A stretch of 64,000 nucleotides of DNA from a virus. Lineage: Duplodnaviria; Caudoviricetes. Below, in pieces: positions 51,168 through 63,588 of this stretch; the stretch's first letter is position 1; the number at the start of each line of letters is the position of its first letter. The position numbers and the translations under genes were made by a program. Where the stretch lies: the IMG/VR virus record IMGVR_UViG_3300030376_006242. One strand, written 5' to 3'. The notes under the pieces are model-generated. The model searched no databases, was not told the DNA's origin, and saw only the letters and a program-made list of their open reading frames with translations.

Positions 51168-51499
51168 ACTGTTTAGGATTATTTTTAGCAATGTCAATGC
51201 ACGTTGGTTTAGAAGCAAATTATAATAATGTACACCCACACGCAAGATGCACTGTAGACAATAATATAGCAGGAGTATTTTACAACTCCGAAGATAGAAT
51301 CAGCACATACATCGGTAAGGAGTTTGAATTAGACGAGTATTGGAATATTGAATTAGGACTTGTAACAGGATATAAATCTGAGGATATACTACCAATGATT
51401 AGATACAAAGCAGGAGGCTTATTTGTTTCTCCTGCATATGAAAAACATAACGGCGAAGAAAACTACGGTGTAGTAATAGGTTGGGAGATAGGAAAATGA
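51164..51499 (+). CDS. Hypothetical small beta-strand protein, possibly exported
   Basis: Hydrophobic N-terminus, FYNSEDRISTY and LGLVTGY. Confidence 0.55.
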   Translation: MNCLGLFLAMSMHVGLEANYNNVHPHARCTVDNNIAGVFYNSEDRISTYIGKEFELDEYWNIELGLVTGYKSEDILPMIRYKAGGLFVSPAYEKHNGEENYGVVIGWEIGK

Positions 51500-52320
51500 G
51501 AATAGCAGGAGCACAAATACCGGTCACAAATGACGTAGGTAAGAACTATGAAGCAATTAAAAAGGCTTGTGATTGGGCAATAGAAAATAATGTAGATTAT
51601 TTGTTCACACCAGAAAATGCGTTGAGTGGTTACGTTGCCGAATCCTTCAACATCAATACTTGTAAAGAAACAGAAGAAGCAATGGCAAAATTAGTAGAAT
51701 ATGCTTCAAGCAACAAGTTAGGTTTAATAGTAGGCACACTATGGTTAGATGATAAAGATAAAATTAACGGTCCTTTCTTTGGATTTAAATCTAATCAATT
51801 AAGATTTTATAACCAAGAAGGAGAATATATTGGTTCAACAAAGAAAACAAAGTTAGTAAGTTTTGATGCTGATTGTGAAAAAGAAACAAAAGCACCAGTG
51901 ATTACTTTGACCAACGGCGAAGCAAAGTTAAAAGTTGGAGCATTAATATGTAACGATCTTGTAGGCAATTACTATGGGGGCGGTGACAATCTTGCTTCTA
52001 AACTAAAAGATGAACAGGTTGCTCTTATAATTCATGCCAGCAATACACAAAAAGATCAAGGCCCGCATATTAAATTGTTACACGATAACTTCCATGATGC
52101 TTGTACTCAATTTATTACATATGCTACTAATATTCCAATATTAAGTGTGGACAATCCGTGGCACTTACATGGAGTAGAAAGCAAAGACGGAACATCATTT
52201 ACATCAGGCATATATTTCCCATTAGAGGCAAAATACCAAGCACCAAAGACAGGCACTCAATATTTTTACTATGATCATAGTGATATAACTTATTCATTCT
52301 CGGAAGGAACAGACAAATGA
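51496..52320 (+). CDS. Carbon-nitrogen hydrolase (nitrilase superfamily)
   Basis: IAGAQIP, FTPENALSGY (Glu), KTKL (Lys) and ALICNDL (Cys) triad. Confidence 0.85.
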   Translation: MRIAGAQIPVTNDVGKNYEAIKKACDWAIENNVDYLFTPENALSGYVAESFNINTCKETEEAMAKLVEYASSNKLGLIVGTLWLDDKDKINGPFFGFKSNQLRFYNQEGEYIGSTKKTKLVSFDADCEKETKAPVITLTNGEAKLKVGALICNDLVGNYYGGGDNLASKLKDEQVALIIHASNTQKDQGPHIKLLHDNFHDACTQFITYATNIPILSVDNPWHLHGVESKDGTSFTSGIYFPLEAKYQAPKTGTQYFYYDHSDITYSFSEGTDK

Positions 52321-53074: not shown

Positions 53075-53550
53075 CAAAAACAAACAAACTACCTTTAAAA
53101 GACATATTAGCGGCTATCGATATGAATGCCAAGAACGTGTGGGACGAATTGTCAGATGATGAACGCAAACAAGTTTCATTCTATTTGTTGAATAGATACG
53201 TAAGTGCTATAAAAGGTAAAACAGAAGACAAGCAATTACAGATATTCAAAACAAATCAATATTATAATAAAAACTTTTTTACACTATCTTCTAAACACAA
53301 AAAATTACTTTGGTATCTTTTGTGTATGACTGCTAATACTTCTAAAAGCATTAGATATCATGAATGGATTGGTTACAAACAGAAAGTAAGCAATAGCACA
53401 GCAAAAGCAATAAAATTTTTAGAAAAACTGTATCCAACTAAAAAGCAAGATGAATTAAAATTATTAGCAACTATAAACACAACAAAAGAATTAAAACAAT
53501 TAGCAGAAGATATGGGTATGCCCAAAGAACAAATTAAGAAAACATTTTAA
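53068..53550 (+). CDS. Putative clamp-loader small subunit (T4 gp62-like)
   Basis: LKDILAAID...FYLLNRYVS...HKKLLWYLL...EWI pattern. Confidence 0.5.
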   Translation: MVTKTNKLPLKDILAAIDMNAKNVWDELSDDERKQVSFYLLNRYVSAIKGKTEDKQLQIFKTNQYYNKNFFTLSSKHKKLLWYLLCMTANTSKSIRYHEWIGYKQKVSNSTAKAIKFLEKLYPTKKQDELKLLATINTTKELKQLAEDMGMPKEQIKKTF

Positions 53551-53996
53551 TGAGTAACAGATTTCATTTAGCCATTGAGGCCGGCAATTTAAAAACAGCA
53601 GTAGACTTTTATGTCAATGTGCTAGGGTGTACAAAACATAACAGTGAATTTAAGTATCCAGATGCTTGGGTAGATATAAACTTTTGGGGCAACGAATTGA
53701 CACTACACGGCTCAGATCCTACAAAGAAAAAGCAAGGAGAAAGACACAATGTGGACATGGGCAATGTCAGTGTACCACACTTTGGTGTACACTTGTCTAG
53801 AGAAGCATTTGATGAAGTAAAGAGAAGATGTATTGAACACAATGTAGAATTCATAGACAAGCCGTACTTAAGATTCGAAGGCACTGATCTAGAACAAGAA
53901 ACAATGTTCATTGCTGATCCACACGGCAACGCAATGGAAATTAAAACAATGAAAAATCCTGAGGAGTTATGGAAGATACAATCCAAACAAAATTAA
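53550..53996 (+). CDS. VOC/glyoxalase family protein
   Basis: FHLAI, FYVNVLGC, WVDINFWGNELTLH, VPHFGV and QETMFIADPHGNAMEIK. Confidence 0.85.
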   Translation: MSNRFHLAIEAGNLKTAVDFYVNVLGCTKHNSEFKYPDAWVDINFWGNELTLHGSDPTKKKQGERHNVDMGNVSVPHFGVHLSREAFDEVKRRCIEHNVEFIDKPYLRFEGTDLEQETMFIADPHGNAMEIKTMKNPEELWKIQSKQN

Positions 53997-54385
53997 ACGA
54001 ATACAAAGAGCATATAGAAACTCTTAAAAGCATAGATGAACTTGAAGTTTACAATTGGATGATGAGTCTGGGTGCAAAATTAAATGATGATGCTTTGTCC
54101 GAAGACAAGCGAATAATTGATAACAAAATAAAACAATGTCAATTTGACCTTTACGTTGACAGAGAAGATAATAAATTTAAAGCATGGAGCAACGGAATGA
54201 TTGCGGCTGGATATGCCTATATCCTATTAGATATTTTTAATTCTTTACCCGCAGAAGAATCTAAAAAGATTACTGAAGAACATTTTCAAACGATCAAATT
54301 GGATGAAATGTTAACTATGAATAGAAAAACAGGATTCTATGAAATGGTGGGTCTGATGATTAACAAAGTAAAGGAAGTAAAATGA
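53969..54385 (+). CDS. SufE/CsdE-like sulfur-acceptor protein
   Basis: YNWMMSLG, NKIKQCQFDLYV (conserved Cys), SNGMIAAG and LTMNRKTG. Confidence 0.6.
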   Translation: MEDTIQTKLNEYKEHIETLKSIDELEVYNWMMSLGAKLNDDALSEDKRIIDNKIKQCQFDLYVDREDNKFKAWSNGMIAAGYAYILLDIFNSLPAEESKKITEEHFQTIKLDEMLTMNRKTGFYEMVGLMINKVKEVK

Positions 54386-55065
54386 TTGAAAAACTTTACA
54401 CGTGCAAATACTGTGGAGCAAAATTCGCCAAAGAAAAAACTTTAACTGTACATATGTGTGAACAAAAAAGAAGATTTACACAAAAAGATGAACGTAGAGT
54501 GCAACTAGGATATCAAACATTTGTAAGATTCTATGAACTATGTCAAAAGTCTAGCAAACCAAAAACATACGAAGACTTTTGTAAATCTCCATATTATACA
54601 GCATTTGTTAAGTTTGGTAGTTTTATCAGCAATGTAAAACCATTATATCCTCACAAATATATTGACTATGTGGTAACATCGGGTGTAAAATTAGATCACT
54701 GGTGTAGAGAAGAAATGTATTTGAAATATGCAGGTGATTTAATATTAAGAGAAAAAGTAGAAACAGCAATGGAACGTTCTATAAAAACTATGATGGATTG
54801 GGGAGATGAAAAAGAAGCACCGTGGAGTGATTATTTTAGATATGCTAGTTTGAATAGAGCAGTTATTGATATTAAAGATGGCAAAATAAGTCCTTGGTTA
54901 ATATTAAATTGTAAGAGCGGAAAAGAGATGATGAAAAAATTTAATGACGAACAATTACAGATTGTGTATCCGGTTATGGATCCATCTCATTGGGCATTAA
55001 GATTTAAAAGACTGCCAGCAGATATTGAAATGGTCAAAGAAATTGTAAAGGAGGCAAAATTATGA
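54382..55065 (+). CDS. Hypothetical protein with an N-terminal Zn finger
   Basis: CKYC...HMC; GKISPW. Confidence 0.6.
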   Translation: MIEKLYTCKYCGAKFAKEKTLTVHMCEQKRRFTQKDERRVQLGYQTFVRFYELCQKSSKPKTYEDFCKSPYYTAFVKFGSFISNVKPLYPHKYIDYVVTSGVKLDHWCREEMYLKYAGDLILREKVETAMERSIKTMMDWGDEKEAPWSDYFRYASLNRAVIDIKDGKISPWLILNCKSGKEMMKKFNDEQLQIVYPVMDPSHWALRFKRLPADIEMVKEIVKEAKL

Positions 55066-55712
55066 TTACAGAAAACAATGTTGTTCCATTATTTGGTATA
55101 CCACTATGTAAAACAAAGATAAGACCTTATGAAGAAAGTGAAGACTTTATCAAAACAAAATTAGAATATGAAGAAAGGTCACACAAAGTTTCTTTTATAT
55201 CTAAAGATGATTATGTATTAGACAAAGAAAACTTGCTACCATTGAAAACCGAGATAATGAATCAAGTTAGTGAATTTATGCATGGATATTTGGATATACA
55301 CCCAAAACATCAATTTGTAATGACAACAAGTTGGTGTAATAGATATGAACAAAATCATTTCATACAAGAGCATTATCATAGCAACAGTTTAGTATCAGGA
55401 GTATTGTTTTTAACAGATTGTAAAGATACAGCAGATATTGTGTTTCATAAAGACAAGAATCACACTAACATATGTACAGACACAGTTAGATTAGATCACA
55501 AAGATAATTTCGATGTGTCACAAAAGAGAAGTTATCTTTATCATCAATCGCAGATAGGTATATCTCCTGAGAAATGGGATTTGATAATGTTTCCAAGTTT
55601 TTTAAATCACAGTGTAAATGTAAACCAATCCAACAATATAAGATATACATTGTCATTTAATGTTTGGGTAAAAGGTGAAGTAGGTGGAGGACATAGTAAA
55701 CTTGTTTTATAA
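55062..55712 (+). CDS. Putative 2OG-Fe(II) oxygenase (paralog of 18897-19535)
   Basis: SWCN, HYHSNSLVSGV, MFPSFLNHSV and RYTLSFN. Confidence 0.8.
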   Translation: MITENNVVPLFGIPLCKTKIRPYEESEDFIKTKLEYEERSHKVSFISKDDYVLDKENLLPLKTEIMNQVSEFMHGYLDIHPKHQFVMTTSWCNRYEQNHFIQEHYHSNSLVSGVLFLTDCKDTADIVFHKDKNHTNICTDTVRLDHKDNFDVSQKRSYLYHQSQIGISPEKWDLIMFPSFLNHSVNVNQSNNIRYTLSFNVWVKGEVGGGHSKLVL

Positions 55713-55714
55713 AA

Positions 55715-56272
55715 ATGTTTGATATAGATATAGATTTTGCTGATAGAAATGTGTTGTTAGAAAAACTAAAGCACAGAATTGCTAAATTAGAAAATGGCAA
55801 GAAGCATAATACAGGCGTATACTTCACAGAGATTCCGCATGATCCAGCAACAAACTTATCTACTTTAGATTATGAAACTGCTGAAGATAGAAACTATTTT
55901 AAGATTGACTGCTTAAATGTAAGCATATACAAAGATGTTAAAGACCACGATCATTTGAATAAACTTATGACAACAAAGCCTATGTGGGAATTACTTGAAG
56001 CAAAAGATTTCAGTGACCAAGTGTTTCATTTAAATGGACACAATGAAATACTGAAGAAACTTAAACCCAAGAATATAGAACAATTGGCGGCTGTTTTGGC
56101 AATCATAAGACCTAGCAAAAGATATCTACTGAATAAAGATTGGGATACAATAATGAAAGAAGTTTGGGTTAAACCAACTGATGACAAATACTTCTTTAAG
56201 AAATCACACGCAACATCATACGCATTCGCAGTTGTGGTACACATGAATCTTATTTGCGAACAACTAACTTGA
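55715..56272 (+). CDS. Minimal DnaE (DNA polymerase III alpha)-like protein, 185 aa
   Basis: DIDIDF, KHNTGVY, FKIDCL, VFHL, LAIIRP and FKKSHATSYA occur in DnaE order. Confidence 0.75.
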   Translation: MFDIDIDFADRNVLLEKLKHRIAKLENGKKHNTGVYFTEIPHDPATNLSTLDYETAEDRNYFKIDCLNVSIYKDVKDHDHLNKLMTTKPMWELLEAKDFSDQVFHLNGHNEILKKLKPKNIEQLAAVLAIIRPSKRYLLNKDWDTIMKEVWVKPTDDKYFFKKSHATSYAFAVVVHMNLICEQLT

Positions 56273-56638
56273 TTACTTAGGTTTTCGGACTAATTGAACT
56301 GATTTTCTCTTGCTTCTTTTCATAGCAAGATTGTTAAGACTTGTTACAGGACCTATTTTTACACTGACATCTTTGGTATTCATCATCATTAAAACGTCCT
56401 TGAATTTCATTAATTCTTTCCTTAGAAAGATGCCAATTGGGATCATTCTGTTGCTTTCCCACCACCACGTTTGACATAAACCCATAAATTTTTCTCTAGC
56501 ATTCACATGAATGTCTTCATATACATACATCGAGGTAATGGAGTTGTCTTGGTTGTTAATCACACCAACGTACTCTTTTCCACCGTATTCGACGACCGAT
56601 ATGAACGGGAAGTTCTTTTCTATGTCGTTTAACAGCAT
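56273..56638 (-). CDS. Hypothetical protein
   Basis: 121 aa, YVGVINNQD and WWWESNRMIPI. Confidence 0.6.
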   Translation of the reverse strand: MLLNDIEKNFPFISVVEYGGKEYVGVINNQDNSITSMYVYEDIHVNAREKFMGLCQTWWWESNRMIPIGIFLRKELMKFKDVLMMMNTKDVSVKIGPVTSLNNLAMKRSKRKSVQLVRKPK

Positions 56639-57485: not shown

Positions 57486-58490
57486 ATGAATATTGTGCTT
57501 GACGTTTTACAAACTTATCTTCCTTCCAAAAGAAAACAAACTCCTAGCGGTTGGTTGGCTTTTAATGCTCCTTGTTGTGAGCATAATGGTACAACACCAG
57601 ATACAAGACAAAGAGGCGGACTGATAGCAAAAGCAGATGAAAGTGTAAGTTTTCATTGCTTTAATTGTGGATTCAAAACAAGTTGGAGATTAGGAAGAAA
57701 CTTATCTTATAAAATGAAAAAATTTATGAGATGGTTAAATGTTCCCGATGATGTAATAACAAAACTAGCATTACAAGTTTTACAACACAAAACAGACGAC
57801 AGTGGTTTTAAATCTATTGTTACACTGCCAAAATTTGTAATGAAACAGTTGCCACCTAAAGCAAAGCCAATACATGAATGGGCAACTTATAAAGATTTGG
57901 AACCAGGTGGTGTTGATAAAGATTTATTTTCTGTAATGGAATACATTGCTAAAAGAAAATTAACACTAGATGATTATGATTTTTATTGGAGTCCTGAAGC
58001 AGGTTATAGAGATAGATTAATAATTCCATTTACGTATCAATCCAAAGTTGTTGGCTATACAGCAAGAAAAGTTGTTGAAAGCAAAGTAAAGTATTTGTCA
58101 GAGCAACAACCAGGATATGTTTTTAACACAGACGCTCAAGATGATGATAGAAAATACATTGTGGCTGTAGAAGGTCCCATTGATGCTATTGCCATAGATG
58201 GTGTAGCACTTTTAGGAAGTGAGGTCAAAGACCAACAAACAGCACTTGTAAACAGTTTAGGTAAACACGTGATTGTGGTTCCTGATAGAGATGAAGCAGG
58301 ACAAAAATTAGTTTATGATGCGATGGAATCAGGCTGGAGTGTGAGTATGCCTGAATGGAGTCAAGATATCGGAGATGTAAACGATGCTGTGTGTAAATAT
58401 GGTAGGCTTCACACATTATACACAATAATTAAAAATGCTGAAGATTCACAACTTAAAACTAAACTGAGGATGAAAAAATGGTTCGCATAA
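57486..58490 (+). CDS. DNA primase (T4 gp61-like; Zn ribbon + TOPRIM)
   Basis: PCC...FHCFNCG, RLIIPF, GYTAR, KYL, VEGPIDA, PDRDEAG and DVND. Confidence 0.88.
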   Translation: MNIVLDVLQTYLPSKRKQTPSGWLAFNAPCCEHNGTTPDTRQRGGLIAKADESVSFHCFNCGFKTSWRLGRNLSYKMKKFMRWLNVPDDVITKLALQVLQHKTDDSGFKSIVTLPKFVMKQLPPKAKPIHEWATYKDLEPGGVDKDLFSVMEYIAKRKLTLDDYDFYWSPEAGYRDRLIIPFTYQSKVVGYTARKVVESKVKYLSEQQPGYVFNTDAQDDDRKYIVAVEGPIDAIAIDGVALLGSEVKDQQTALVNSLGKHVIVVPDRDEAGQKLVYDAMESGWSVSMPEWSQDIGDVNDAVCKYGRLHTLYTIIKNAEDSQLKTKLRMKKWFA

Positions 58491-58619: not shown

Positions 58620-59630
58620 ATGATAATTTGGGGAGTAACAGGAAACAATCACGATGCCAGTCTGGCTGTCATGGAATGGCGAGTAGCAGGACTAACAGAT
58701 CACTATCATTTGAAATTAAAATGGGCAGGAATGTCTAAGGACTTCAGCGGTATACCTGGAGACCCTACACTTTGTCCTAAACTGATGGCAGAAGTAAGAG
58801 CAAATCCTAAATGGGCCTTCCCTGCCAAGATATATTTTTATGAAAAACCTTTCAAAAAAACTATGCGTCAATTGATAGCGGGTCAAGGTTGGAAATGGAA
58901 AGAAAACAATATTAAAAAGTTTTTAAGTAAAGCAGGAATACACAATGTACCAATTGAATACATAAATCATCATGAAAGTCATGCCGCATATGGATATTAT
59001 ACTTCTCCATATAGAAATGCCGCAGTGGTTGTATTAGATAGTATAGGAGAGTTTGAAACTTTTACTATATGGCATGGACACGGTAACAAATTAGAAAAGA
59101 AATACACACAAAGTTATCCGCACAGCATTGGTCTATTTTATTCAGCAATGACACAAAGAGTTGGTCTAAAAGCAAATGCAGAAGAACATAAGTTTGAACA
59201 ACTTGCCAAAAAAGGCAATTGGAGAAAGTATTACAGAATGTTTATGGAAGAATTAGTTGATACAAGAATGCCTTTCAAAACAAGAATTAATTTACACAGA
59301 GGTTGTAATTGGTGGAGACCAGAATTAAACACAGAACAAGATATGGCAGACATTGCCGCAACTACACAACACATTTTTGAACAAGTGTTGATGTGTGCTA
59401 GTTCATGGATACAAATGAATATCAAAACATCAAACATAATTTTGGTTGGTGGTTGTGCGTTAAACAAAACAGCAGTCACTAAATTGGAATCAGTTTGGGA
59501 TGACATATGGGTGCCAAAAAATCCTGGAGATCCAGGAAGTTGTATAGGTGCTGTTCTTGCCAAATATCATAAGCACATTGACAATTCAAACGAAATGTGG
59601 TATAATAAGGACAATGGTAAAACAAAATAA
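58620..59630 (+). CDS. Carbamoyltransferase N-terminal (Kae1-like) domain only
   Basis: NHDASLA, HHESHAA, DSIGE, SIGLFYSAMT, GGCALN and PGDPGSCIGA; no C-terminal GPRALG/RPFA domain. Confidence 0.85.
   Translation: MIIWGVTGNNHDASLAVMEWRVAGLTDHYHLKLKWAGMSKDFSGIPGDPTLCPKLMAEVRANPKWAFPAKIYFYEKPFKKTMRQLIAGQGWKWKENNIKKFLSKAGIHNVPIEYINHHESHAAYGYYTSPYRNAAVVVLDSIGEFETFTIWHGHGNKLEKKYTQSYPHSIGLFYSAMTQRVGLKANAEEHKFEQLAKKGNWRKYYRMFMEELVDTRMPFKTRINLHRGCNWWRPELNTEQDMADIAATTQHIFEQVLMCASSWIQMNIKTSNIILVGGCALNKTAVTKLESVWDDIWVPKNPGDPGSCIGAVLAKYHKHIDNSNEMWYNKDNGKTK
59578..59606 (+). promoter_or_regulatory. Consensus sigma70 promoter with extended -10 for the helicase gene
   Basis: TTGACA-17-TATAAT with TG at the extended -10 position; ATG 7 nt downstream (59614). 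Confidence 0.85.
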
Positions 59631-61062
59631 AGATTATGGATATGAGATACAAAAACTGTATCTCGAAATGATGTTGGGTGACGCAGAAACGTTTGTGCGT
59701 TGTCAATCTATATTTGATCATTCATTGTTTGATAGAAAACTTCAAGAGACAGCAGACTTTGTTAACAAGTATGTGGCAGAATATAATTCATTGCCGACAT
59801 ATGATATTGTAAACAAATCTTGTAATGTTAATTTAAAACAAGCAGAAAATTTAACAGAAGAGCATTTTACTTGGTTGTTAGATGATTTTGAAACTTTTGT
59901 TAGACATAAAAGTTTAGAAAGAGCAATATTGAAATCTGCTGATATGCTTGAAAAAGGTGAATATGGTCCAGTAGAAGAGTTGGTTAAAAAGGCTGTACAA
60001 ATAGGACTACACAAAGACATAGGTACAGATTACTTTGATGATCCAAAAGCAAGACTTATGGGACTGAAAAATCAAAATGGACAAGTCAGCACAGGCTGGG
60101 CAACACTAGATAAAAAATTGTTTGGTGGATTCAACAAAGGTGAGTTGAATATATTTGCTGGTGGATCTGGTGCTGGTAAAAGTTTATTTCTTGCTAACTT
60201 AGGTTGTAATTGGGTGCTAAATGGATTGAATGTTGCTTATGTTTCATTTGAATTAAGTGAAGCACTTGTATCAATGAGATTAGATTCAATGCTAACAGAT
60301 GTTCCTGCTAGAGAAATTTTCAAAGATTTAGATGGTGTAGAAATGAAAGTTAAATTGCTTGGTAAAAAAGCAGGTAAGTTTCAAATCAAATACATGGCAA
60401 GTGGTAAAAACGCAAACGACTTGAGAAGTTATATCAAAGAATATGAAATAAAAACAGGCACAAAATTAGATGTGATACTTGTAGATTATTTGGATCTTAT
60501 GATGCCTATCAGTAGAAAAGTATCGCCAAGTGATTTGTTTGTTAAAGACAAATTTGTATCTGAAGAATTAAGAAACTTATCAATGGAATTGAATGTTATC
60601 TTTGTTACAGCATCACAGTTGAATAGAGGTGCTGTTGAAGAAATAGAATTTGATCACTCGCATATATCTGGTGGTTTAAGTAAAATACAAACTGCTGACA
60701 ATGTGTTTGGTATATTCACAAGTAGAGCAATGAGAGAACGTGGTAGATATCAAATACAATTAATGAAAACAAGAAGTTCTAGCGGAGTTGGTCAAAAGAT
60801 TGATTTAGAATTTGATGTGGACAGTTTGAGAATAAGAGATCTTGCTGAAGATTCTGAATATCAAGAGTTTGATAAACGTAAGAGTACAATATATAATTCA
60901 CTAAAAAAGACATCAACAGTTACTGAAAACGATGCTGAAGAACCAAAAGAACTTAAAGCACCAGACCCAACAAAAGGCGACACTGTTGGTCGTATCGAAA
61001 CAGGCAACACTGACCAAACAAAGTTGAGGGACTTTTTAAAGAACCTTGATGGCGATGAATAA
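59614..61062 (+). CDS. Replicative DnaB-like helicase (T4 gp41-like)
   Basis: STGWATLD, AGGSGAGKS, SFELSE, VDYLDLM, TASQLNR and MKTR. Confidence 0.9.
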   Translation: MVKQNKDYGYEIQKLYLEMMLGDAETFVRCQSIFDHSLFDRKLQETADFVNKYVAEYNSLPTYDIVNKSCNVNLKQAENLTEEHFTWLLDDFETFVRHKSLERAILKSADMLEKGEYGPVEELVKKAVQIGLHKDIGTDYFDDPKARLMGLKNQNGQVSTGWATLDKKLFGGFNKGELNIFAGGSGAGKSLFLANLGCNWVLNGLNVAYVSFELSEALVSMRLDSMLTDVPAREIFKDLDGVEMKVKLLGKKAGKFQIKYMASGKNANDLRSYIKEYEIKTGTKLDVILVDYLDLMMPISRKVSPSDLFVKDKFVSEELRNLSMELNVIFVTASQLNRGAVEEIEFDHSHISGGLSKIQTADNVFGIFTSRAMRERGRYQIQLMKTRSSSGVGQKIDLEFDVDSLRIRDLAEDSEYQEFDKRKSTIYNSLKKTSTVTENDAEEPKELKAPDPTKGDTVGRIETGNTDQTKLRDFLKNLDGDE

Positions 61063-61935: not shown

Positions 61936-63588
61936 ATGACTGATTTAGAAAATATACAAAGGCTCACTGAACGTTTTAAAAGGCAAATGCCCAACGGTGA
62001 AGTGTACCAACAAAGACTCGCAGAAGAATTTGAACTAATTCTTAAACAAAGATTCACAGAATACTTTTTAAAAATTTGTGACATCATAGACATCACATCA
62101 GATTTAAAACACATGACAAGAGGTTCGGCAGGATCCAGTCTTGTATGCTATCTGTTAGGAATAACTGATGTAGATCCAGTTAAATGGAATATACCTGTAG
62201 CACGTTTTATGAATCCATTGCGTGATGATTTACCTGATGTTGACATAGACTTTGAACATCACAAACAAGCAGAAGTTATGAATCGCATTTTCAAAAAGTG
62301 GCCCGGCAAGACAGCAAGAATATCTAACTATGTGAAGTATCAACCCAAGTCAGCAAAACGTGAAGCGGCAAAACGTTTAGGTGCCAAAGGCAAACTGCCA
62401 CGCAAATTTAAATATGAAGATTATAATATCGATCCTGTTGAAGCAAAACGCATAGAACAAAAACTGTTAGGTAAGAAAAGATGTATATCTAAACACTGTG
62501 GTGGAATCATAATGTTTGATAGACAATTGCCTAAAAGTTTAATTTCTGCTGATAATCAAATACTGCTGGACAAATATGAAGTTGAAGACTTAGAACATTT
62601 GAAAGTTGATATACTTGCCAATAGAGGTTTGAGTCAGTTATTAGAAATAGATCCTGATATGAACTTAACAGATTATCCTATAGAAGATGAAGCAACTTCA
62701 AACTTATTAAGCAGAGGAGATGTGTTAGGAGTAACACAAGGTGAGTCACCGGCAATGCGTAGATTGTTTAGAGCAATACAACCTAAAAGTGTATACGACT
62801 GTGTGTTCGCAACTGCTATGATACGACCGGTAGCAATGACAGGTAGACAAAAAGCATCCATGTTCAATGACTGGACTAAAGAAGGTGTACAAGATTCAAT
62901 TGTGTTTGAAGATGATGCTATTGAAATTATTTCTGAGATTATAGGTATAGATATGTATGAAGCAGATATGTATCGTAGAGCATTTGCTAAAAAGAACGAT
63001 GAAAAAATTATAGAGTTTGTAGATAGATTAGGTAATCATCCACGCAAACAAGAAGCAATTGACACACTGATGACACTGTCTGGATTTGGTTTATGTAGAG
63101 CCCATGCGGTCAACTTGGGCAGATTGATTTGGGCACTGGCATATCAAAAGGCACACAATCCTAAAAAGTTTTGGGCGGCTTGTTTAAAACATTGCGAAGG
63201 ATCTTACAGACGTTGGGTGTACAACACAGAAGCAGAACGTTGGGGAATTGACAATGAACCTGGTTGGTGGAGAAGAGGATTTATTCCTAAATGTCATGTA
63301 CAACAACAGTATCTAGATTATGTTCAGTTTGCTGGAGTTATTGCCAATGGTAGAGTTTTCAAAGGTAAAAATGGCAAGTATGTAACATTTGTCACACTAG
63401 GAATAGGTCCTGGCGAATACATAGACATCACAGTTAAGAAACCGTTCAGTCACAAAGATGGTGATGTTATTGTGGGTAGAGGCAAAATCAAACATCATAA
63501 TAATTCAGACTATGTGGAATGTCAAGATGTGGAACTGCTTTCATTCCAGCAATGGCTGGCGGACAGCAAAAATTCCGCGAAGCGGTAA
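61936..63588 (+). CDS. dnaE: DNA polymerase III alpha-like (DnaE) lacking the PHP domain
   Basis: RGSAGSSLVCYLLGITDVDP, RFMNP, PDVDIDF, KHCGG, KVDIL, GVTQGES, AMIRP and GLCRAHA, plus an OB-like C-terminus. Confidence 0.88.
   Translation: MTDLENIQRLTERFKRQMPNGEVYQQRLAEEFELILKQRFTEYFLKICDIIDITSDLKHMTRGSAGSSLVCYLLGITDVDPVKWNIPVARFMNPLRDDLPDVDIDFEHHKQAEVMNRIFKKWPGKTARISNYVKYQPKSAKREAAKRLGAKGKLPRKFKYEDYNIDPVEAKRIEQKLLGKKRCISKHCGGIIMFDRQLPKSLISADNQILLDKYEVEDLEHLKVDILANRGLSQLLEIDPDMNLTDYPIEDEATSNLLSRGDVLGVTQGESPAMRRLFRAIQPKSVYDCVFATAMIRPVAMTGRQKASMFNDWTKEGVQDSIVFEDDAIEIISEIIGIDMYEADMYRRAFAKKNDEKIIEFVDRLGNHPRKQEAIDTLMTLSGFGLCRAHAVNLGRLIWALAYQKAHNPKKFWAACLKHCEGSYRRWVYNTEAERWGIDNEPGWWRRGFIPKCHVQQQYLDYVQFAGVIANGRVFKGKNGKYVTFVTLGIGPGEYIDITVKKPFSHKDGDVIVGRGKIKHHNNSDYVECQDVELLSFQQWLADSKNSAKR

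Follow-up and report, generated by a model that had tools for sequence, protein, structure and literature searches.

The open reading frame (ORF) under study occupies positions 55715-56272 of a 64,000-nucleotide stretch of viral DNA, which is called the window from here on. The features of the window that bear on this ORF are the following:

54382-55065, + strand: protein of 227 aa with an N-terminal C2H2-like zinc finger (phrog_11058)
55715-56272, + strand: protein of 185 aa matching phrog_11778, very probably the C-terminal (Mg2+-binding, template/fingers) unit of a split minimal Pol III alpha (C unit)
56273-56638, - strand: convergent ORF of 121 aa (phrog_11637)
57486-58490, + strand: DnaG-type primase with zinc ribbon and Toprim, part of a conserved replication block
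59548-61062, + strand: DnaB/gp41-like replicative helicase, in the same conserved replication block, with an uncertain annotated start
61936-63588, + strand: distinct PHP-less DnaE of 550 aa that does not belong to the split enzyme; accessory gene, found in some strains only

The C-unit ORF is open throughout and its product has 185 aa. The gene starts 2 nt past the stop codon of the preceding 2OG-Fe(II) oxygenase gene, and its 3' end lies back to back with the convergent 121-aa ORF. Comparison with the phages 121Q, PA5oct and Phosso and with metagenomic relatives has revealed a collinear block of nine genes, which comprises the uvsW helicase, orf168, orf160, the zinc-finger gene, the C unit, the convergent ORF of about 120 aa, a virion structural protein, the primase and the DnaB helicase. 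In all of these genomes the zinc-finger gene is kept just upstream of the C unit, with 24-43% identity between its product and those of distant relatives. All lineages examined keep the 121-aa ORF in this position and orientation, with a product that is 38-48% identical in distant phages, and the synteny of the C unit with the zinc-finger gene and the primase was likewise found conserved in every lineage examined.

Accessory genes interrupt the conserved replication block at positions 51481-52320, 53550-54385, 55062-55712 and 58620-59630 of the window. The interrupting genes are a CN hydrolase, a 148-aa ORF, a SufE-like gene, the 2OG-Fe(II) oxygenase and a carbamoyltransferase N-terminal domain, and they vary among close relatives (the 2OG oxygenase, for example, is missing in loci L031 and L056). 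The longest helicase ORF (59548-61062) shares about 80 nt with the end of the carbamoyltransferase gene. Since the gene callers used for other contigs place the beginning of the helicase further downstream (464 or 482 aa), it is uncertain where this gene truly starts.

The C unit begins MFDIDIDF and carries five collinear motifs: DIDIDF (residues 3-8), KHNTGVY (30-36), FKIDCL (62-67), LAIIRP (128-133) and FKKSHATSYA (161-170). The key residues within them are D3 and D5 (DIDIDF), K63 and D65 (KID), R132-P133, and K162, H165 and Y169 (FKKSH..Y). An earlier reading of this DNA, made from the sequence only, had noticed DnaE motifs in this order, and the translation, the family profile and the fold match described below all bear this out. 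The match of the C unit to its family is, at the level of sequence profiles, far beyond chance: residues 2-183 align with positions 7-194 of phrog_11778, a family of 197 positions annotated as 'DNA polymerase', with an E-value of 8.1e-59, which amounts to a full-length match at 8e-59. The only Pfam match was to the Pol III finger domain and fell under the threshold, and PF07733 likewise remained below significance on this ORF. When the profile of alignment A3, built from 83 diverse family members, was compared with the PDB, only Pol III alpha chains were retrieved (E-values from 2e-5 to 2e-4). In this alignment the E. coli Pol III alpha contributes 399-MPDFDVDF (D401, D403), GLVKFDFLGL (K553, D555), ALFRPG (636-641) and FNKSHSAAYA (755-765). 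A direct BLASTP comparison of the C unit with the 550-aa DnaE of the window was barely significant (E-value 0.095), so that profiles and structure were needed to establish the relationship.

The AlphaFold2 model of the C unit reached a pLDDT of 96.6 and a pTM of 0.88. Pol III alpha chains alone ranked at the top of the Foldseek search, with scores (E-value about 1e-3, TM about 0.45) that were weak because of the large deletions in the C unit, and the match was resolved by re-alignment with VIA. Against residues 461-837 of the Taq Pol III alpha (3e0d_A), the re-alignment gave a Z of 9.9 and an rmsd of 3.6 over 183 of the 185 residues, and comparable values were obtained for Mtb DnaE1 (419-807), PolC (971-1295) and E. 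coli alpha (400-780). The top 15 VIA matches were all Pol III alpha or PolC chains; such chains (2hnh, 3e0d, 5lew and 3f2c, for example) gave Z values of 9.3-9.9 over about 183 residues, and the first unrelated chain followed at a Z of 3.5. According to the predicted structure, about 380 DnaE residues (400-780 of E. coli alpha) are compressed to 185 in the C unit; the thumb and the greater part of the fingers are gone, and no sequence precedes or follows this region.

The C unit therefore resembles bacterial Pol III alpha (DnaE) and PolC in the fold of the second palm half and the finger base, in the catalytic carboxylates and in the finger motifs, and it differs from bacterial DnaE in its length (about 185 aa versus more than 1000) and in that its palm is incomplete within the chain. 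The PHP domain, the GRGS half of the palm, the thumb, most of the fingers, the clamp-binding/HhH part and the OB fold are absent; the sequence-only reading had correctly described the PHP domain, GRGS motif, thumb, most of the fingers and OB fold as missing from an intact ORF. With regard to the Pol-beta-like core, the DxD and the third aspartate are present and the G[GS] loop is absent. An RGS-type motif was found nowhere in the C-unit ORF, and within the window it occurs only in the 550-aa DnaE.

A tblastn search found the C unit in 96 phage records, all of them of jumbo-phage lineages. Its identity to the proteins of cultured phages is 52% for Phosso, 51% for the PA5oct group, 50% for Atu_ph07 and about 37% for Xoo-sp13 and the 121Q/PBECO4/Rak2 group. 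An identical protein is encoded on 79 marine metagenome contigs, and the relatives form at least 7972 sequence clusters with a uniform length of 184-194 aa; grouped at 50% identity, 416 clusters are related to it. Across the 81 representatives of full length, D3, D5 and D7 are retained in 97%, with gaps in the others, K63, D65, R132 and P133 in 100% and H165 in 97%. The retention of all three catalytic aspartates, already claimed from the sequence, thus holds for the family as well as for this protein (97-100%). The start, M-[PF]-DIDID, places the first aspartate two residues behind it and is constant across lineages. The dN/dS values, computed against relatives with unsaturated synonymous sites, were 0.01-0.04. 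Judged from its sequence and those of its relatives, the C-unit gene is real, intact and strongly conserved under selection.

A split minimal Pol III alpha consisting of two units has been described, from genome comparison, in T4-like-core jumbo phages of group 2.2 (Iyer et al. 2021, Viruses 13:63, PMC7824862). It is presented there as a phage-specific minimal enzyme found alongside the family B polymerase (sections 3.4.1 and 3.5, Fig. 3b). The C-unit family is therefore already known: it was described in 2021, has its own PHROGs entry and carries an annotation in phage records of recent date. The C unit of the window is 37-52% identical to those of the described split enzymes (Phosso XYS97594.1, PA5oct gp264 and 121Q gp16), and it shares with them the length, the DxDxD start, the conserved residues and the gene block. 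Unlike the described phages, the phage of the window belongs to an uncultured marine jumbo lineage, the genome of which is estimated at about 350 kb, and carries in addition the 550-aa PHP-less DnaE. A family B polymerase of about 895 aa is present in the IMG/VR relatives G007 and G008, and such a polymerase is expected for group 2.2; none was found within the 64-kb window.

The other unit of the split enzyme, the N unit, corresponds to phrog_11127 and has about 170-187 aa. Its hallmarks are an invariant WGxGRGSSxxS loop (WGVGRGSS in the relatives) and an end that is invariably EFL[KR] followed by the stop codon. In Phosso, it is an ORF of about 176 aa at 97.2 kb, with the C unit at 321.3 kb, and it was the sole PF07733 match when this genome was searched whole. 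The IMG/VR relatives G003, G004, G007 and G008 also contain an N unit distant from the C unit, so that it is present in all five relatives with records that reach far enough. The N-to-C distance on the records of Phosso and these four relatives is about 96-226 kb, which corresponds to an N unit about 96-125 kb downstream of the C unit on a circularly permuted reading of the genome of about 350 kb. Among cultured phages, the listed tallies of N and C units by genus are equal for Escherichia (34 each), Erwinia (8), Salmonella (8), Xanthomonas (4), Yersinia (4), Agrobacterium (2) and Serratia (2), and unequal for Klebsiella (11 C versus 10 N) and Pseudomonas (11 C versus 17 N); the surplus N-unit matches listed include ordinary full-length DnaE genes. 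In abundance the N-unit family matches the C family: it comprises at least 8000 clusters, in which the proteins have 170-187 aa.

The two units divide the polymerase sequence between them. In G007, the N unit covers positions of about 19-95 of PF07733 and the C unit positions 96-196. On the 550-aa DnaE of the window, which contains both parts in one chain, the N profile matches residues 24-97, ending in ARFMNPLRD, and the C unit starts at about residue 100, at PDVDIDF; the boundaries adjoin, so that the two units complement each other exactly but for a few missing linker residues. A natural N-then-C fusion was also found, P0370 (375 aa; L172:1066-2193), on one 2.4-kb metagenomic contig only, in which the order of the sequence is GVGRGSS, IKEFIKDNKEGIYNIADFDIDT, MKIDLL, AIIRPGK and YKKTHSISYA. 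No other fused form occurred among the 150 best representatives of the family, and the single-sequence AlphaFold2 model of P0370 was unusable (pLDDT 35.7).

Within the 64-kb window, neither the regular expression [RK]G[ST]..[GSANC][SCT] nor a tblastn search with the N unit of Phosso found an N unit, and an HMM built from three N units gave, over all window ORFs of at least 50 aa, only a weak match to the 550-aa DnaE. The closest IMG/VR relatives were estimated by CheckV to be 26% (91.7 kb) and 24% (84.3 kb) complete, from which a genome of about 350 kb is deduced, and the window represents less than one fifth of it. From the relatives, we infer that the phage of the window encodes its N unit outside the window.

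Most contigs that bear the C-unit gene or relatives of it at 80-99% identity (loci L004-L067 and L175-L221) end about 5-30 kb downstream of this gene, irrespective of their total length and with up to 199 kb on the upstream side. In the relatives, the N unit lies farther downstream, at about 96-125 kb. These clustered contig ends point to a region, hypervariable or repeated, at which assemblies break.

The interaction between the two units was modelled by co-folding P0001, the C unit of the window, with an N unit taken from G007, a marine relative in which the C unit is 67% identical to P0001; alignments A3 and A4 served for the C and the N unit, respectively. The pair obtained a score of 0.92, with 0.38 for the best of three controls. 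Among solved complexes, 58 of 80 attained the mark applied to such scores, as did 2 of 110 mismatched pairs; these counts serve only as a rough calibration here because custom alignments were used. The runs agreed in at least 96% of the contacts, and the pLDDT of the partner was at least 91. In the model, residues 146-159 of the N unit (VWGVGRGSS...) pack on residues 2-9 of the C unit, which form the DxD strand, and the N-unit strand and loop complete the Pol-beta-like sheet. This arrangement mirrors the intramolecular contacts of DnaE in solved structures, so the pass may reflect this likeness. With the support of the co-fold, the N and C chains are predicted to bind each other.

Taken with the family match, the fold and the distribution of both units, these results indicate that the ORF at 55715-56272 very probably specifies one of the two subunits, the C-terminal one, of a minimal polymerase of family C (Pol III alpha-like) that is specific to phages. 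The partner of the C unit is most probably the dedicated N unit (phrog_11127) and not the nearby 550-aa DnaE. The sequence-only reading had argued that the ORF is not half of a split gene, on the grounds that it duplicates the motifs of the 550-aa DnaE. The duplication itself is true, as GRGS, DxD and KxD are all present in the 550-aa protein, but this protein is not the partner, and the duplication gives no argument against a split gene: the missing half is the N unit with the GRGS loop, of about 170-185 aa, which is encoded far away in the relatives.

The same reading had proposed instead a stand-alone 185-aa C-family nucleotidyltransferase with a new role, such as priming, protein priming or nucleotide signalling, perhaps in association with the zinc-finger protein. 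The conservation of the three carboxylates and the finger motifs would suit such an enzyme, as would the zinc-finger gene upstream and the primase and helicase downstream in every lineage, and no N unit was seen within the 64-kb window. Nevertheless, a self-sufficient enzyme of this kind is very unlikely, since the G[GS] loop and the elements with which the Pol-beta-like fold begins (positions 19-95 of PF07733) are missing from the C unit and sit on the separate N unit. The N unit also co-occurs with the C unit in the relatives searched, with near-matching patterns by genus, both units are joined in the fusion P0370, and the co-fold model sets the GRGS strand of the N unit on residues 2-9 of the C unit. 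As for the zinc-finger protein, its gene does lie just upstream of the C unit in all lineages, but the nine-gene block is collinear as a whole, so this adjacency is not specific evidence of a partnership. The suggested link to the primase and helicase fares in the same way: the synteny is conserved, but so is that of the whole block, and the adjacency is unspecific.

Apart from the missing PHP domain, the 550-aa DnaE is complete by its own sequence, with GRGS, DxD and KxD motifs, fingers and an OB-like end, and its best match in the phage collection was to the uncultured 484-kb phage LR756508.1 (36%). Its distribution is irregular. The loci L012 and L031 lack it at the same position and keep the C unit (95% and 89% identity) with the flanking genes, and L039, L045, L050, L051 and L054-L057 contain it with 87-96% identity. 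In L054-L057, the DnaE is 96% identical to the copy of the window, in comparison with 80% for the C unit, and this decoupling suggests exchange between strains. It was not found in Phosso, where the whole genome was searched and the N unit was the only PF07733 match, and it is absent from the PA5oct and 121Q regions examined; in G003, G007 and G008, PF07733 matched the split units only, and G006 gave no match. The 550-aa DnaE is thus a strain-variable accessory gene. As Iyer et al. 2021 (PMC7824862) stated that the phages with the split enzyme contain no other Pol III domains, the strain of the window, with both a split unit and the 550-aa DnaE, is a small exception to this statement.

That the C unit works with the 550-aa DnaE or regulates it, as an alternative palm/fingers module or as an inhibitor, is suggested by the proximity of both genes, which are 5.7 kb apart or less in this strain and in several relatives. 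This association seems most improbable, because the 550-aa protein already has its own GRGS, DxD, KxD and fingers, because L012 and L031 keep the C unit and lack the DnaE gene at the same position, because this gene was not found in Phosso, in the PA5oct and 121Q regions examined or in G003, G006, G007 and G008, and because the identities of the two proteins are decoupled in L054-L057. Finally, a decaying fragment (pseudogene) of a full-length DnaE, to which the short length and the many lost domains could point, is refuted by the conservation data and has practically no probability left, given the uniform 184-194 aa in at least 7972 clusters, the constant start across lineages, the dN/dS of 0.01-0.04, the catalytic positions kept in 97-100% and the pLDDT of 96.6.

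In the two-subunit polymerase that is preferred here, the C subunit would supply the DxD strand (D3 and D5) and the third carboxylate, D65, with K63, which would form a two-metal site, and also a heavily trimmed fingers module (R132-P133, K162, H165 and Y169). The N subunit would supply the preceding helices and the WGVGRGSS loop, which would hold the triphosphate of the incoming nucleotide as in DnaE. The two chains would assemble in this way into one Pol-beta-like palm with a single family-C active site. The resulting enzyme lacks the PHP domain and epsilon proofreading, the thumb, the clamp-binding part and the OB fold, and it would therefore be distributive. From these features, it would work alongside the family B replicase as a short-patch DNA polymerase that extends primers, fills gaps or carries out repair, a role that was suggested by Iyer et al. 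2021 (PMC7824862). In the literature, no biochemical or bench test of any member of the split mini Pol III was found.

A more specific and rather unlikely role is that of a primer-extension or hand-off polymerase, with the two-piece mini Pol III recruited to the fork by the syntenic primase-helicase. In Firmicutes, DnaE extends the RNA primers and PolC takes over afterwards, which offers an analogy for such a hand-off. The zinc-finger protein or the convergent 121-aa protein might then act as an accessory subunit, and, if this role were true, the extra 550-aa DnaE would give this phage three polymerase systems.

A catalytic core likewise divided between separately encoded polypeptides in a large phage is that of the split family B polymerase of chimalliviruses (bioRxiv 2026, PMC13648687). 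That enzyme differs in belonging to family B rather than family C and in being found in another phage group.

With respect to annotation, the C unit should not be labelled as a complete 'mini-DnaE', and the adjacent full DnaE should not be taken for its partner. The split mini Pol III is a family very abundant in metagenomes in both of its halves (at least 8000 N-unit clusters and at least 7972 C-unit clusters). To our knowledge, it represents the smallest known family-C polymerase core, and therefore a natural model of the minimal requirements of a C-family palm.
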